From a virus, in UHGV virus genome UHGV-0067634: a stretch of DNA of 12,128 bases; one strand, given 5' to 3'. Positions 1-5,271 of the stretch are shown one piece after another. The translations under genes and the position numbers were made by a program. The first letter of the stretch is position 1. Each line of letters starts with the position of its first letter. The notes beneath the pieces were generated by a model. It did not search any database and was not told the DNA's origin. It was given only the letters and a program-made list of their open reading frames with translations.

Positions 1-49
1 AAGCACAAAGCCTTGTTTGTCTCAGTTTTGTCTCATCAACCACAGCAAG

Positions 50-587
50 TCATCGATCGATTGAGGCTTGGATGATAGACTTCATGCCCTTCAGTACTTC
101 ATCCTCTATCGCTTCTCCGTCGCTCGTAATCAGCACCTTACCCTTCCGCCTGGAGAATTGTGTAAAGACGTCGCTCAGGATCAGTAGCACGTCACCAACA
201 GTTAGCTTAATAAACTGGTCAATTACGACATAGCTTTTAGACGTATCAAGGATACGGCCGCTCTCTGTCGTGCACATTTCATGATGGTTCAAGCAGTTAC
301 CAACAAAATCCTGCGCCGATGATGGAGATCCTATATCACAGCCCTCTACCGTAGTCGTAGAACATGAACAGGCGTTTCTCACCATCGTTAGGTGAGATAT
401 CTTTGAAGGTGGTGACATAGCTCTCGATCCACTTGTTGGCTTCGTGGAAAGACCAGTGCCAGTTGACATTTGCCATCTCGTTGACAAAGTCCTGCGTTAA
501 AACCGTCTTACTCCCGTCTGGTTGTGATTTGTTTGCTGCCGTAAAGCGCTTGGTATCTCGTATCTTCGTGCCATAATCATCTCCCCA
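50..587 (-). pseudogene. Frame-disrupted ORF remnant: protein-like translation in one frame over 336..587 (ends ...FMFYDYGRGL*) and in another frame over about 50..335 (ends ...KGMKSIIQASIDR*)
   Basis: Hand translation of the minus strand. The ATG at 572..574 has a GGGGAG RBS but its frame stops after 25 codons (stop 497..499). A second frame is open 336..587 with no in-frame start near its 5' end. The track ORF 50..487 begins at a TTG and its first ~50 residues look like out-of-frame junk. Family unknown. Confidence 0.3.
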
Positions 588-591
588 TTAT

Positions 592-611
592 TACTGTGTA
601 TAAACACAGCA
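592..611. promoter_or_regulatory. LexA-box-like (SOS box) palindrome TACTGTGTATAAACACAGCA
   Basis: CTGT-N8-ACAG with an AT-rich centre; 16 of 20 positions match the consensus TACTGTATATATATACAGTA as I recall it. It lies about 12 bp upstream (minus strand) of the GGGGAG RBS and ATG at 572..574, and about 87 bp upstream (plus strand) of the acyltransferase start. Confidence 0.4.
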
Positions 612-697
612 CCTACAGATATTGCTATCGATCAAGCCTTTCATGGGTGTTAAACTGCGCCCCTTAATACTTACTGCTATTTTTCTGAGTAAATATA

Positions 698-1846
698 ATG
701 ACTAACCAGTTTGCCATTACCATTGCTATATCCTGCTTCGTGATTGCGATGGTGATCTTCAGTTTGCCAGTCTTCAAATTCCTGGACGAAGAGGCTCAAC
801 CAAAGAGAACGAACAGTCTTGATGGGATGAGATTTATTCTTGCATCATTGGTAATATTTCATCACATGGACTGTTTTTATTCTTACTATACCACAGGTAA
901 ATGGGAGCCAGTTTCCTACTTTCTTTTCGCTGCCGGAAAGTATGGCGTTGCACTTTTTTTTATGACTACAGCTTACCTTTTTTGGGGCAAGGTAAGGATA
1001 AAAGATAGTGTTGATTGGGTTTCACTCTACAGAGGACGGTTTTTCAGGATTATCCCTTTAGCTGTATTCGCATCATTTGTCGCTATAATTTCATTGTTTA
1101 TTTTCACTAAGCCGTTCCCTCTGTATAACACCCCAATTTCAAATATATTTTCTTGGTTCGATGGTAGCTTATGGGATCACAAACCACCAGTAACAACGAT
1201 GCAGCGTCCAACTATAGCTTTGGCGGGTGTAACCTGGACTTTAAGATGGGAGTGGATGTTTTATTTTACTCTCCCTGCACTCTTTTTCTTTAGGAAACTT
1301 TCTTTTGAAATTTCAATAATTTTATTAGCATTTTCAATTTACCTCATGCCAAGCATAACCAAAGATGCATATCTTTGGTCATTTTTCTTCGCAGGAATGG
1401 TTTGCAGAGAGTTAAAGGAAAGAGTTTATATAACTGAGTCAAATGCAGAGTGGTTTTTATTAGCATCAATAATCCTCATCATAGTTGTCGACCCCACACT
1501 ATTTCGTGTTCCCGGAACGATATTCCTTGCCTTTATATTTTTCTCAATTTTGTCTGGAGGTAGCCTCTTTGGTTTACTCAAAACAAGAGCAGCTATTAGG
1601 CTTGGAACTATAAGTTATAGTCTATATATCACTCAAGGTTTAATTTTATTCCCTGCATACAACCTGTATATAAAAGAGTTTACGTTAAATCTTGATAGTT
1701 CATATTTTATATTCCTTTGCATGTCATACGCTGCCATTTGTTTTTTATCAGCAACAACCTATCATTTCATTGAGCTTCCTTTTATGAAAATAGGAGGTAG
1801 GAAAAGCACTAAGAAGCTAAACCAAGCCAATGTCTTAGATAAATGA
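698..1846 (+). CDS. Acyltransferase family 3 integral membrane protein, putative O-antigen O-acetyltransferase (serotype conversion)
   Basis: 382-aa ORF, hydrophobic throughout. Motif R-x3-LDGMRFILASLVIFHH resembles the acyltransferase-3 signature (R..LDGLRGIA....H) of Oac/OafA-type proteins. Sits in the slot between tailspike and phage end where P22 has gtrABC and Sf6 has oac. Visibly AT-rich versus the structural genes. The motif is preceded by a ~36-aa hydrophobic extension, so the true start is uncertain. Confidence 0.75.
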   Translation: MTNQFAITIAISCFVIAMVIFSLPVFKFLDEEAQPKRTNSLDGMRFILASLVIFHHMDCFYSYYTTGKWEPVSYFLFAAGKYGVALFFMTTAYLFWGKVRIKDSVDWVSLYRGRFFRIIPLAVFASFVAIISLFIFTKPFPLYNTPISNIFSWFDGSLWDHKPPVTTMQRPTIALAGVTWTLRWEWMFYFTLPALFFFRKLSFEISIILLAFSIYLMPSITKDAYLWSFFFAGMVCRELKERVYITESNAEWFLLASIILIIVVDPTLFRVPGTIFLAFIFFSILSGGSLFGLLKTRAAIRLGTISYSLYITQGLILFPAYNLYIKEFTLNLDSSYFIFLCMSYAAICFLSATTYHFIELPFMKIGGRKSTKKLNQANVLDK

Positions 1847-1855
1847 AATTACTTT

Positions 1856-1879
1856 CTGGGGTGCTGACATCCACCCCAG
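1856..1879. terminator. Hairpin between the convergent acyltransferase and tailspike genes (possible bidirectional terminator)
   Basis: Inverted repeat CTGGGGTG (1856..1863) / CACCCCAG (1872..1879) with an 8-nt loop, between stop codons at 1844..1846 (plus) and 1888..1890 (minus). Flanking U-tracts are weak on both strands. Confidence 0.4.
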
Positions 1880-1887
1880 CTTTGCTG

Positions 1888-3861
1888 TTAGTTAAGGACC
1901 GTCCAGTCAGAACTATTTAACCCGTGCGATTTCCACCATTTGCTTGTCCCTGGAAGCCATACCTCTTGACCAATAAATCGAGGTGTCACGTTACCAACAG
2001 GAGTGCTCATTCCGGCACTTGTAACAACATATCCATATTTTGCTGGGCCTGTTCCATTATTAAGGATTGTATCCTTTGTTATGCCTGTTGCCCCATTGTA
2101 CCATTCCAAATCACTACCGCTAGCACCGCTAATAAAGTCAGGCATAAAGTGTGAAAATGAATTATTGGCATCCACTCTGGCACCATTGTAAGCCATATAA
2201 CCGCTAGCTTGAGTATTACTCCATCTCCCTCCTTTTACACTACCAGCAGATGAAGAGAAAAATCTTGCCGCATATCTTGCAAAACCGGCTATATTTATAT
2301 TATTCAATTCATAACCAGAAAGAGACGCAATTGACATACCATCATTATTAGGAATACCTGATGCTATTTGTGGGTTTGATGCATATCCTGTTAATGTGGC
2401 TCCGTTAATATATATCCCTGTGCTTGGCCCAGTCTCTGATGTGTATATTCCAACTCCAGAACAGTTAAAAACTTGAAGATCTGTGATTCTAACATTTCTG
2501 GCATAATGAAAGCTCAAGCCTCGCTCAGCTGGTGAATAGGTCTCGCGCATAGGATATCCGACATCACGCAAGCGAACTCCGTTAATGCTAATGTTGCTCG
2601 GATTCATACCTGGTGTTACTGACTCAAAACCTTCAAATGTAATGCCATTACCAACATTGATTCCCACTACATTACTGACGTGAATATCTGAGACATACCT
2701 TTTAAATCCGATAACTCCATGGGCACAATTACGACCAACAACGTTGGTGATAATGCAATTACGCGTGCCTCCAGGCTCCCCTGCAGAACAATAAATTCCT
2801 AAATCCCGACAATTCTCTACGAGAAGACCGTCAATGACGGAATCTGTAGCGCTTGCATACATCAGGCATGAATCAGGCGCATTAACAAGTTCAACATTTT
2901 TTAGTGTGCAACGTGCTCCACCAAAAGTAAGGATATCAGCTACAGCATAAAGCTTGTTGTTTTCTTGATTACCATCAATGCGTAAATCACGTATATGAAC
3001 ATCATTAGCCCCCATGTTGTGAACAAGGTAGTAGGCCTGTGTTTTATCAACACAAATATCATCCGCAAATTTAAGCCATCCCCCAGCACCGATAAGTATT
3101 GTTTTCTCCTTGATCTGTAATCCAGTAAATATCCATGGATCTCCATCTTTATTCTTTGGAGTAATCTTTATTGCACAGTAACCAGGAACAGATCCAGAAT
3201 AATCAAGTGCTGCCTGTAGCGTCTGCTGATCTGTCATGCTACCAAACATAAAAGAACGCACATCAATACAGTCATCAACCTGTAATTCCAATTGTAGGCC
3301 ATCAGAACGGTCAACAATGACAATACCATCTGCAGTAATACCCGTATTTGGAGTTACTGAGTACTTATTATAACTCCCGGCAGAGTTTTTAACCGCCACC
3401 AAGCGTCCTTCAACAGTTGTGTTTATTGTCAGATCAGTCTGGTTATCCAACTCCATGGCAATGCCGCCAATAAGAGCGGCCCCTTCAGGCTGTGATAGTT
3501 TGTTTTTAAATGTGTCTAATGCTTGATCTGGGTCATACTTAAGAACGTCAGGAAAGTAATGCTGTTGCACCATATATGAATCATATACAGCCATACTATA
3601 ATTCTGTGTAGTAAGAAACTTACATATCTGCCCGTTGTGAACAGGGTAGCCACCAGAATTAATTATTATTGGCTGAGAAACCGGAACAGGAGTGCCATTC
3701 TCACCTTCAATATATACCTGAATTTGGTTTGAAGGTGATGTTGGATCTGTATCAGGTAATCCTATAAACATTTTGCCATTGGCTACGGCTTTAAAAGAGC
3801 GAGCCATAGTGAAGAGTTGCGATGGCATGCTTACCACAACATTGGCTGTGATGTTTGTCAT
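1888..3861 (-). CDS. Tailspike protein: P22 gp9-like N-terminal head-binding domain fused to a different beta-helix receptor-binding domain
   Basis: 657-aa ORF. The first ~110 aa (MTNITANVVVS...RSFKAVANGK...VLKYDPDQ) align by eye with the P22 tailspike head-binding domain as I recall it. The remainder is Gly/Asn/Ser/Thr/Val-rich like a right-handed beta-helix but does not resemble the P22 endorhamnosidase domain. RBS AGGA 7 nt upstream of the ATG at 3859..3861. Confidence 0.9.
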   Translation of the reverse strand: MTNITANVVVSMPSQLFTMARSFKAVANGKMFIGLPDTDPTSPSNQIQVYIEGENGTPVPVSQPIIINSGGYPVHNGQICKFLTTQNYSMAVYDSYMVQQHYFPDVLKYDPDQALDTFKNKLSQPEGAALIGGIAMELDNQTDLTINTTVEGRLVAVKNSAGSYNKYSVTPNTGITADGIVIVDRSDGLQLELQVDDCIDVRSFMFGSMTDQQTLQAALDYSGSVPGYCAIKITPKNKDGDPWIFTGLQIKEKTILIGAGGWLKFADDICVDKTQAYYLVHNMGANDVHIRDLRIDGNQENNKLYAVADILTFGGARCTLKNVELVNAPDSCLMYASATDSVIDGLLVENCRDLGIYCSAGEPGGTRNCIITNVVGRNCAHGVIGFKRYVSDIHVSNVVGINVGNGITFEGFESVTPGMNPSNISINGVRLRDVGYPMRETYSPAERGLSFHYARNVRITDLQVFNCSGVGIYTSETGPSTGIYINGATLTGYASNPQIASGIPNNDGMSIASLSGYELNNINIAGFARYAARFFSSSAGSVKGGRWSNTQASGYMAYNGARVDANNSFSHFMPDFISGASGSDLEWYNGATGITKDTILNNGTGPAKYGYVVTSAGMSTPVGNVTPRFIGQEVWLPGTSKWWKSHGLNSSDWTVLN

Positions 3862-4256
3862 ATTAATTTCCTATCTGATTATTTATATATTAAATAAATT
3901 CGGATAGCAGCAGGCGAAAGATGAAAGTGTTAAAAAATAACCTTTCATTCATTTTATAGTTAACAATATAATTGTCTCTGCTAACATATAACACGCGAGC
4001 ACGCTGATCAACCGCCATATAACATGTGTACTTAACTAACTGTTTGCAAAAGAAAAAACAGACAACGAAAAGCATTAAGAAATAAAAAAACAAAATATAA
4101 AATTACCATTCAAATAAAATCATTGCTTTTCTTATTAATATTAACAGTGATACCAACAATGTTTATTTTCAAATCAAAACCTGTTTACAATATCTGTCAT
4201 TTAATTTGCTCCAGATACAAGGAATCGCCGCGGCATGGCTACGGTGAATTTTGGGC

Positions 4257-4300: not shown

Positions 4301-5203
4301 TCAGTAGTTATGTACTGAAGGAGGCAATTCTTTATTCTTAAGTCTCATCCATGCGGAAAGATTCGTTGGTCCGTCTGGCTCATTGATATCAACATCTCGT
4401 GTGTGATTGATTAAAACGTCTCTCGCCATTCCGATAACATACGAGAACTCATGACCATAGTCGTAGCATCTGCCGGAATAGTTCGATTGAATTTGTTTTA
4501 ATGCCGGATACAGTTCACGGAATAATGCCTGTGAACGGTTGGCATAATCCCATAACCATACAAGGCTGTTTGCTTCTTTTGCAGAAAGCTCGTTGGTTTT
4601 CTTCTCTTGTTTGCCAATGAACTCACCTTCAAGCACTACCCTGTGGATGTACTCTACGGCTTTCGGTATCTGAGATGCATCAAGCTCTTCAATACTTTCC
4701 ACATTGAAATGCTGATGAATCATTGCATAAGCTTCTGGGTACATTAGATGCTTTTTGCTGACCAGCATATTTACAGCATCACGAAGCGGAGTCCTGTCAT
4801 CAACAGATGTTTTCTTACGTGCATTTTCTGCCTTTCCCTTCGTCCAGCAGTCATGCAGCACAGTAAAGCATTCTTCCTGGTACTGAATCAGTTTATCACG
4901 GATGTCAGCACGAACTTTCTCAGGGTTGATGCTGAACAGCCATCCATTTAACTTCTTCAAAGGAAGGCAGAGTAGCTTACGAAGCTTACCATCAGCGGCA
5001 ACCATGTTCATATGAACACAGTTGAATTTGCTAATCTGCTTCATGAGTTTTGTTTGCTGCGTTGACCAGCTCATTCCAAGGTTTTCAACGATTGGCTTCA
5101 TCGCAACATATGCAACTCCGGCAGCCATGGCGGTGATAATTTGCTGACCGTTGAATGGTACGTAAGAGGTGTTCACTGCTTCTAAAATTGCTATACTATT
5201 CAT
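4301..5203 (-). CDS. ant: Antirepressor Ant (immI region)
   Basis: 300-aa ORF directly downstream of arc in the same orientation, matching P22 immI gene order. The longer track ORF (to 5269) starts at TTG; the ATG at 5201..5203 ([10 protein letters not shown]...) has a GGAG RBS and gives the expected size. Product assigned by synteny and length, not by remembered sequence. Confidence 0.8.
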
Positions 5204-5271
5204 GTTGGTTTTTCTCCACGGATTTACTGACAAACGAAGCCCTGACTGTTCCCGCAGTTGGGGCTTCAACT
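5204..5271 (+). ncRNA. sar: Possible sar antisense RNA locus (arc-ant intercistronic region); ends not determined
   Basis: In P22 a ~68-nt antisense RNA is made from the arc-ant intercistronic region and pairs with the ant RBS. Here that region is 68 bp and holds a 13-bp imperfect hairpin (5235..5266, two G-U pairs). Promoter and 3' end could not be fixed from sequence. Confidence 0.3.

Follow-up and report, generated by a model that had tools for sequence, protein, structure and literature searches.

The stretch of 12,128 nucleotides taken from the UHGV virus genome UHGV-0067634 (hereafter the window, at its full length) carries on its minus strand the gene of a 657-amino acid (aa) tailspike, which faces a convergent gene encoding an acyltransferase. 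These 12.1 kb form the right end of a P22-like (Lederbergvirus) prophage in an Escherichia coli chromosome. Which polysaccharide does the tailspike recognize, and does the acyltransferase modify the same one?

Our preferred answer, to which we give a rough probability of 0.75 as a whole, combines a P22-type anchor, an O-antigen-specific receptor-binding domain (RBD) and an acyltransferase that masks the receptor. The anchor (residues 1–113) would fix the trimer to the tail hub, as it does in P22 and Sf6. The module that follows (residues ~121–657) would bind, and probably cleave, the O-antigen produced by an rmlBDAC-wzy-wzx-3GT cluster (GT, glycosyltransferase) which has gne upstream of galF, and this would set the host specificity of the phage. 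The acyltransferase, of the AT3 family, would O-acylate the same O-antigen in the lysogen. By analogy with Sf6 Oac and BTP1 GtrC, O-acylation would block re-adsorption of the phage or cleavage by its own tailspike. In Sf6 lysogens, the modification made by Oac likewise shields the O-antigen.

A P22-type anchor on an unrelated receptor-binding domain

The tailspike is divided as follows.

1888..3861, minus strand: tailspike open reading frame (ORF), 657 aa
3523..3861, minus strand: head-binding (particle-anchoring) domain, aa 1–113, PF09008 (E 2e-53), ending in the conserved VLKYDPDQ
3475..3522, minus strand: junction or linker zone, aa ~114–129, where the anchor joins the RBD
1888..3500, minus strand: RBD, aa ~121–657 plus the stop codon
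aa ~121–200, minus strand: neck or small domain of the RBD
2077–3249, minus strand: right-handed parallel β-helix of the RBD, aa ~205–595
1891–2076, minus strand: conserved C-terminal domain of the RBD, aa 596–657

The Head_binding family (PF09008) matches aa 1–113 over its full length, after which Pfam gives just one sub-threshold match, to Beta_helix. In a phmmer search of all PDB chains, Sf6 gp14 and P22 gp9, full-length chains included, align only over aa 1–114/118. Similarly, about 185 of 50,697 phage records searched with tblastn match just the first 113–180 residues, at 57–77% identity; they include HK620, Sf6, epsilon34, CUS-3 and Sf101. A preliminary description of the window had limited the resemblance to P22 gp9 to the first ~110 residues (3532..3861), and this boundary is accurate. 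Identity to the P22 tailspike over the full length, which would have contradicted that description, was looked for and is absent. Indeed, the RBD alone (aa 114–657) has no sequence match in the PDB even at E ≤ 10, and homology of the C-terminal domain to residues ~125–666 of gp9, the GH90 endorhamnosidase, was not detected. No NCBIfam model matches the tailspike, the acyltransferase, ORF 50–487 or the 752-aa protein described below.

The junction lies at aa ~113–121, directly after VLKYDPDQ. DNA similarity to HK620 and 611R6 stops at ~3524, that to the Uetakevirus-type gene of strain SCEC020022 starts at 3474–3500, and protein similarity to phage MK-13 starts at aa 113. The tailspike of E. coli PK8217, which has the same length, is 63–82% identical to that of the window at the nucleotide level in codons 1–120, and 97–100% identical over the remainder of the gene (codon 121 onwards). 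The head-binding domain of PK8217 has a near-identical counterpart (99%) in phage 611R6, where it is joined to an unrelated RBD. As for the head-binding allele of the window, it is divergent (73–77% aa identity to the common Lederbergvirus alleles, and at most 80% to most alleles) and recurs at 98% aa identity on three proteins with other RBDs: P0002 (RBD 80%) and P0017 and P0018 of E. fergusonii (55% overall).

Conversely, the RBD is found on other anchors. In SCEC020022, it forms the C-terminal part of a 752-aa protein (95% identity over aa 121–657) with a Uetakevirus anchor, the N-terminus being 92% identical to that of TL-2011b and 80% to that of phiV10. It is present in Kayfunavirus ZH4 (70% identity), in the 964-aa tailspike protein (TSP) MK13_00101 of Agtrevirus MK-13/ChubbyThor (66%, aa 113–653), and on Tail_spike_N (PF18668) anchors in contigs of 41–75 kb and in an Enterobacter hormaechei prophage. 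The module exchange that the preliminary description had proposed is therefore directly visible, both in the identity break between the window and PK8217 and in the presence of the RBD on Uetakevirus, Kayfunavirus, Agtrevirus and Tail_spike_N anchors. Judged by its sequence, the tailspike is an ordinary mosaic of a P22-type anchor and a swappable, horizontally acquired sugar-binding module. The pattern of a similar N-terminus and an unrelated C-terminus was described for P22-like tailspikes in 2008 (PMC2629481), and E. coli receptor-binding proteins (RBPs) in general show an equivalent modular pattern (PMC10408124). Modular P22-type tailspikes located beside conversion genes have been established for decades, and the conceptual advance is therefore small.

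The model of the monomer predicts a β-helix with a pLDDT (predicted local distance difference test) above 90, whose structural similarity to known β-helix glycan-active proteins points to the pectin-lyase-like, right-handed parallel type. The view that the remaining ~550 residues form a β-helix distinct from the P22 endorhamnosidase is true in terms of homology, there being no match to the C-terminal part of gp9. As to the reaction, the RBD would more likely be a hydrolase than a lyase. Its activity could possibly still be that of an endorhamnosidase, analogous and not homologous to those of P22 and Sf6, because the O-antigen cluster with which it is associated carries rmlBDAC.

The receptor is probably a rare O-antigen

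The O-antigen cluster of the lysogen PK8217 has the order gne-galF-rmlBDAC-wzy-wzx-GT2-GT-GT2-gnd. Its specific part, from wzy to the last GT gene, is present in 19 of 5426 complete E. coli genomes. The DNA of the RBD is present in 10 of the same 5426 genomes, nine of which (PK8217, six Res13 pig isolates, D7 and SCEC020022) carry the PK8217-type cluster. The hypergeometric probability of this association is 8e-23, and 1.4e-10 when the Res13 clone is collapsed. The same cluster is found on the contig of the window itself, DARLNV010000003.1, at 34.7–56.0 kb, the tailspike being at ~93 kb, with ~47 kb between them. In three further assemblies, the accession of Wzy is 39 numbers away from that of an identical tailspike, and Wzy and the 752-aa RBD protein are found together in one E. 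fergusonii genome.

The distribution of the sequences thus suggests that the receptor of the RBD is probably one rare, so far unnamed, O-antigen type of E. coli and E. fergusonii. The expectation of a receptor different from that of P22 is supported by the strong tie of the RBD to this rare cluster, together with the lack of homology to the C-terminal part of gp9.

Two named serotypes were considered and rejected. The host of MK-13 pointed to S. boydii type 1/E. coli O149, which was dismissed for the lysogens because their cluster lacks a pyruvyltransferase gene and is not matched by the O149 primers. A strain of sequence type 156 (ST156) with serotype O51:H28 (PMC12474207) had prompted the candidate O51, whose wzy primers are absent from the cluster even when up to 3 mismatches are allowed. 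The papers on strains SCEC020022, GZEC065, PK8217 and Res13 state no serotype, and the names attached to the Wzy protein cluster are merely generic ("O-antigen polymerase").

The acyltransferase and the conversion slot

The region next to the tailspike gene contains the following features.

698..1846, plus strand: AT3-family integral-membrane acyltransferase (PF01757), 382 aa, GC content 37%, putative O-antigen O-acetylase and lysogenic-conversion gene
1856..1879, no strand assigned: GC-rich hairpin between the convergent tailspike and acyltransferase genes, 8-bp stem with 6 GC pairs, from a terminator scan
6..98, plus strand: conserved left border of the conversion slot, matched by blastn in the loci L002, L015 and L016 at 92–95% identity
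50..487, minus strand: UmuD-like ORF or remnant upstream of the acyltransferase, phrog_3469 (E 6e-17)

The acyltransferase belongs to the AT3 family (PF01757, E 4e-21, 75.8 bits for a cutoff of 31) and to the O-acetyltransferase family PHROG 3333 (E 5e-38). It has multiple hydrophobic segments, and a sequence search of the PDB gives no match. It is 29–32% identical to OacB of Sf101, with which it shares the motifs DGxR..HH (H55/H56), R114-x-x-R117 and TWTLRWEW (TWTLxxEW). The hairpin is likely a bidirectional terminator, to judge from its sequence and its position.

The border 6–98 is homologous to the DNA immediately upstream of gtrA in other P22-like prophages. In the cryptic prophage CPS-53 of K-12, its counterpart lies between intS and yfdG (gtrA). 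The ~90-bp element, which contains GATC within ATCGATCGAT, is present in 739 of the 5426 E. coli genomes, and probably acts as the promoter or regulatory border that conversion slots of this type have in common. In the relatives L015, L016 and L027, this slot holds gtrABC in place of the acyltransferase. The tailspike RBDs of these three are related to that of the window (83%, 55% and 78% identity, respectively), and their gtrC families differ (GT_STM0557_N or Glucos_trans_II).

In PK8217, positions 89–1647 of the window are cleanly deleted, UmuD-like segment included, leaving the 3'-terminal 199 bp of the acyltransferase gene as a scar; its ancestor therefore carried the same acyltransferase beside the same RBD. 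Genes similar to umuD and umuC flank acyltransferase homologues in Enterobacter prophages. Positions 249–597 of the window are 82% identical to E. mori DNA (L018, 11296–11645) located downstream of the acyltransferase, in a permuted order.

Acyltransferase and RBD as one mobile cassette

Homologues of the acyltransferase at 70–71% identity occur in E. coli, E. hormaechei and E. mori. In a Uetakevirus-like prophage of E. coli (L023) and in a siphovirus-like prophage of E. hormaechei (L024–L026), the homologue is convergent with a tailspike whose RBD is 45–46% identical to that of the window over aa 118/121–657. The only block that L023 and L024 have in common is a segment of 2730 bp (93.6% identity), which extends from the start codon of the acyltransferase, through a palindromic hairpin at the position corresponding to that of the window, to the anchor/RBD junction. 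Compared to the window, the block has diverged to 71% aa identity for the acyltransferase and 45% for the RBD.

These comparisons indicate that the acyltransferase and the RBD are linked, co-transferred and co-diverged, and recombine as a two-gene cassette onto different anchors. Two proteins that act on one glycan would be expected to leave such a genetic signature. The preliminary description had suggested that the receptor is the polysaccharide modified by the acyltransferase; the position in a conversion slot and the homologous pairs that move as one block give this link genetic support. Cassette behaviour is the one observation added here to that description.

A genome of Enterobacter mori (SRR33937245, GCA_050895235.1; L021/L018–L019) has an O-antigen cluster syntenic with that of E. 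coli, with a Wzy at 65% identity, and also an acyltransferase homologue (70% identity), which is located at the end of a different prophage. Between cassette variants 1 and 2, the acyltransferases are 71% and the RBDs 45% identical, and Wzy is 65–72% identical in Enterobacter. Matching the Enterobacter hosts of variant 2 to the Wzy variant P0125 was tried and rejected, because the samples differ. We are slightly more inclined to accept than to reject the broader proposal that the RBD and the AT3 protein form a self-contained cassette for recognizing and masking a glycan, which would move whole between unrelated temperate phages and genera (Lederbergvirus, Uetakevirus-like and siphovirus-like Enterobacter prophages are covered) and co-diverge with the O-antigen of the host. 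If this is true, a single recombination unit transmits both host range and superinfection immunity, which would then not be independent mosaic pieces.

Alternative explanations

Several observations weigh against the combination of an O-antigen-specific RBD and a receptor-masking acyltransferase. The confidence of the monomer model is low in its N- and C-terminal parts, and the best structural neighbours are a mixture of epimerases, hydrolases and lyases with similar scores and 10–18% identity, from which no catalytic residues or reaction type can be assigned. The genome NZ_OZ261667.1 (L013/L014) is the sole exception among the genomes that bear the RBD: it carries a 93%-aa-identical RBD on a 752-aa Uetakevirus-type tailspike, and a different O-antigen cluster, with rmlBDAC and GDP-fucose genes. 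This could result from an O-antigen switch after lysogeny or from a shifted specificity. In an in-silico PCR with 137 serogroup primer pairs (from PMC7403468, O149 and O51 included), no site was found in the cluster of the lysogens (L006, L007) with up to 2 mismatches. The acyltransferase is dispensable for the maintenance of the prophage, since PK8217 has lost it and SCEC020022 lacks it, and the E. mori homologue adjoins an unrelated tail fibre. Last, cleavage, binding and acetylation are inferred, whereas the architecture, the junction, the association with the O-antigen cluster and the co-mobility come from direct analysis.

The acyltransferase might be an unrelated moron inserted at a permissive site, which acylates peptidoglycan or another glycan and is uncoupled from the receptor of the tailspike. 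The UmuD-like remnant in the same slot, the deletion in PK8217 (which kept its RBD), the non-homologous fibre in E. mori and the diverse substrates of AT3 proteins are consistent with this view. However, the acyltransferase and the RBD are inherited as a 2.7-kb block on two unrelated backbones and have co-diverged from the pair of the window, among phages the nearest homologue, with an equivalent layout, is OacB of Sf101, an O-antigen acetylase, and E. mori pairs its homologue with a syntenic O-antigen cluster. We therefore regard the moron explanation as unlikely. Still less likely is that the RBD recognizes another glycan, such as the capsule, colanic acid or the enterobacterial common antigen, and that the association with the O-antigen cluster merely reflects the common descent of the lysogens. 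The RBD is paired with the same rare cluster in at least five host backgrounds (PK8217 from chicken, the Res13 pig clone, D7 from a river, SCEC020022 of ST156, and the host of the window), the E. fergusonii genome also holds both, and the association persists after the clone is collapsed. In addition, the slot next to the RBD is occupied by classical O-antigen modifiers (AT3, gtrABC).

It is very improbable, in our opinion, that the tailspike is a non-functional relic of a defective prophage, even if many P22-like prophages are degraded and the gene is immediately preceded by a 316-bp insertion and a relic tailspike start. Indeed, the ORF of 657 codons is intact, and the identical protein is encoded on at least 24 contigs (its 90% cluster has n = 71 members). 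The virion genes gp7/20/16 and gp26-like and the immI region are intact nearby, and more than 90 alignment columns are invariant among tailspike homologues at 55–93% identity. An O-antigen-specific RBD on a P22-type anchor, with an acyltransferase that would mask the receptor, thus remains our preferred explanation.

The prophage and the region upstream of the tailspike

The features upstream of the tailspike gene are the following.

3873..4188, minus strand: AT-rich insertion, 316 bp, 27% GC, between the ant terminator (4283–4264) and the tailspike start
4301–5269, minus strand: ant gene
5204–5271, plus strand: sar antisense RNA (Rfam RF00262, 92 bits, E 4.5e-19), overlapping the 5' end of ant

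The window is 88–92% identical at the nucleotide level to P22, HK620, epsilon34, phiv205-1 and N7 over the ejection-protein, tail-accessory and immI genes, and megablast detects no similarity to these phages across positions ~100–3520. The neighbouring genes encode the domains P22_gp7, Inj_translocase, Phage_P22_gp16, Arc/Mnt and P22_AR. The sar RNA, ant and the arc/mnt-like ORFs form, by sequence comparison, a complete P22-type immI region. The tailspike gene has the position expected in a Lederbergvirus: it is the last late gene, downstream of gp7/gp20/gp16 and of the immI moron, and it adjoins conversion genes and the attachment site att.

The exact tailspike protein was found on DARLNV010000003.1 (GCA_033644825.1, E. 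coli; L004/L007), where its neighbours are gp7/gp20/gp16, arc/mnt/ant and the acyltransferase, after which come the chromosomal genes ibs-yegL-pphC-yegI-yegD-alkA-dgcE. The integration region is mdtA-ibs-yegL, which is uninterrupted in another genome. The prophage lies only ~47 kb from the O-antigen cluster that it apparently targets, and 39 genes away in three other assemblies. This linkage of the prophage to its receptor locus could permit their co-transfer in large recombination events.

The ribosome-binding site and start of the tailspike gene are imperfectly duplicated on either side of the insertion: the relic ATGACAGATATT (MTDI), at 4200–4189, is the start of the common tailspike allele. 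The insertion is absent from PK8217, L016 and 611R6, has no match in the 5426 E. coli genomes and belongs to no Rfam family. It contains a promoter-like site on the strand of the tailspike and an ORF of 67 aa, for which no PHROG match was found.

Comparison with known systems

The tailspikes of P22 (gp9), Sf6 (gp14), HK620 and epsilon34 share with that of the window the PF09008 anchor (57–77% identity over aa 1–113), and Lederbergvirus tailspikes have the same gene position, after ant and the immI moron, and a similar architecture in which a linker joins the anchor to a β-helix RBD. In contrast, the RBD of the window has no detectable sequence similarity to those of P22, Sf6, HK620 and epsilon34, with which it has only the fold in common (10–16% identity).

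The layout of Sf101 is like that of the window: the tailspike gene is followed by a convergent AT3 gene, oacB, and then by int, and the pair lies at the end of the prophage, where it adjoins att. However, the identity to OacB is just 29–32%, the RBDs are unrelated, and the probable target O-antigen is of an E. coli/Enterobacter type for the window, whereas it has the S. flexneri rhamnose backbone for Sf101. Sf6 Oac and P22 gtrABC are further comparable conversion genes adjacent to a tailspike.

The closest RBD in a cultured and sequenced phage is that of MK-13/ChubbyThor. MK-13 is a virulent myovirus of 159 kb with several TSPs, which infects S. boydii type 1 and whose TSP has an Ackermannviridae N-terminus. 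A probable receptor is now assigned to an uncharacterized RBD family which is also present in virulent phages (the Agtrevirus MK-13 and the Kayfunavirus ZH4), and this assignment should be useful for host-range prediction and RBP engineering.

Pas et al. (2023, PMC10408124) described serogroup-specific RBP subtypes that are exchanged across genera. The phenomenon is similar, as is the method, in which the RBD of a prophage is compared to the O-type of its host, and the genera overlap (Lederberg-, Uetake-, Kayfuna-, Gamaleya- and Kuttervirus). The pair formed here by the RBD and the O-antigen cluster is not among the 14 serogroups validated in that study, whose main text does not mention acetyl- or acyltransferases. 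The window and its relatives offer a clean natural case in which an RBD and its probable cognate receptor-modifying gene are exchanged as one block between phage backbones.

The functional model is BTP1 of Salmonella ST313: its GtrC shields the O-antigen against the tailspike that the same prophage encodes, and prevents superinfection (PMC4413052). The modifier of BTP1 is of the GtrC type rather than AT3, and its tailspike RBD and host also differ, but the acyltransferase of the window would shield the receptor in the same manner.

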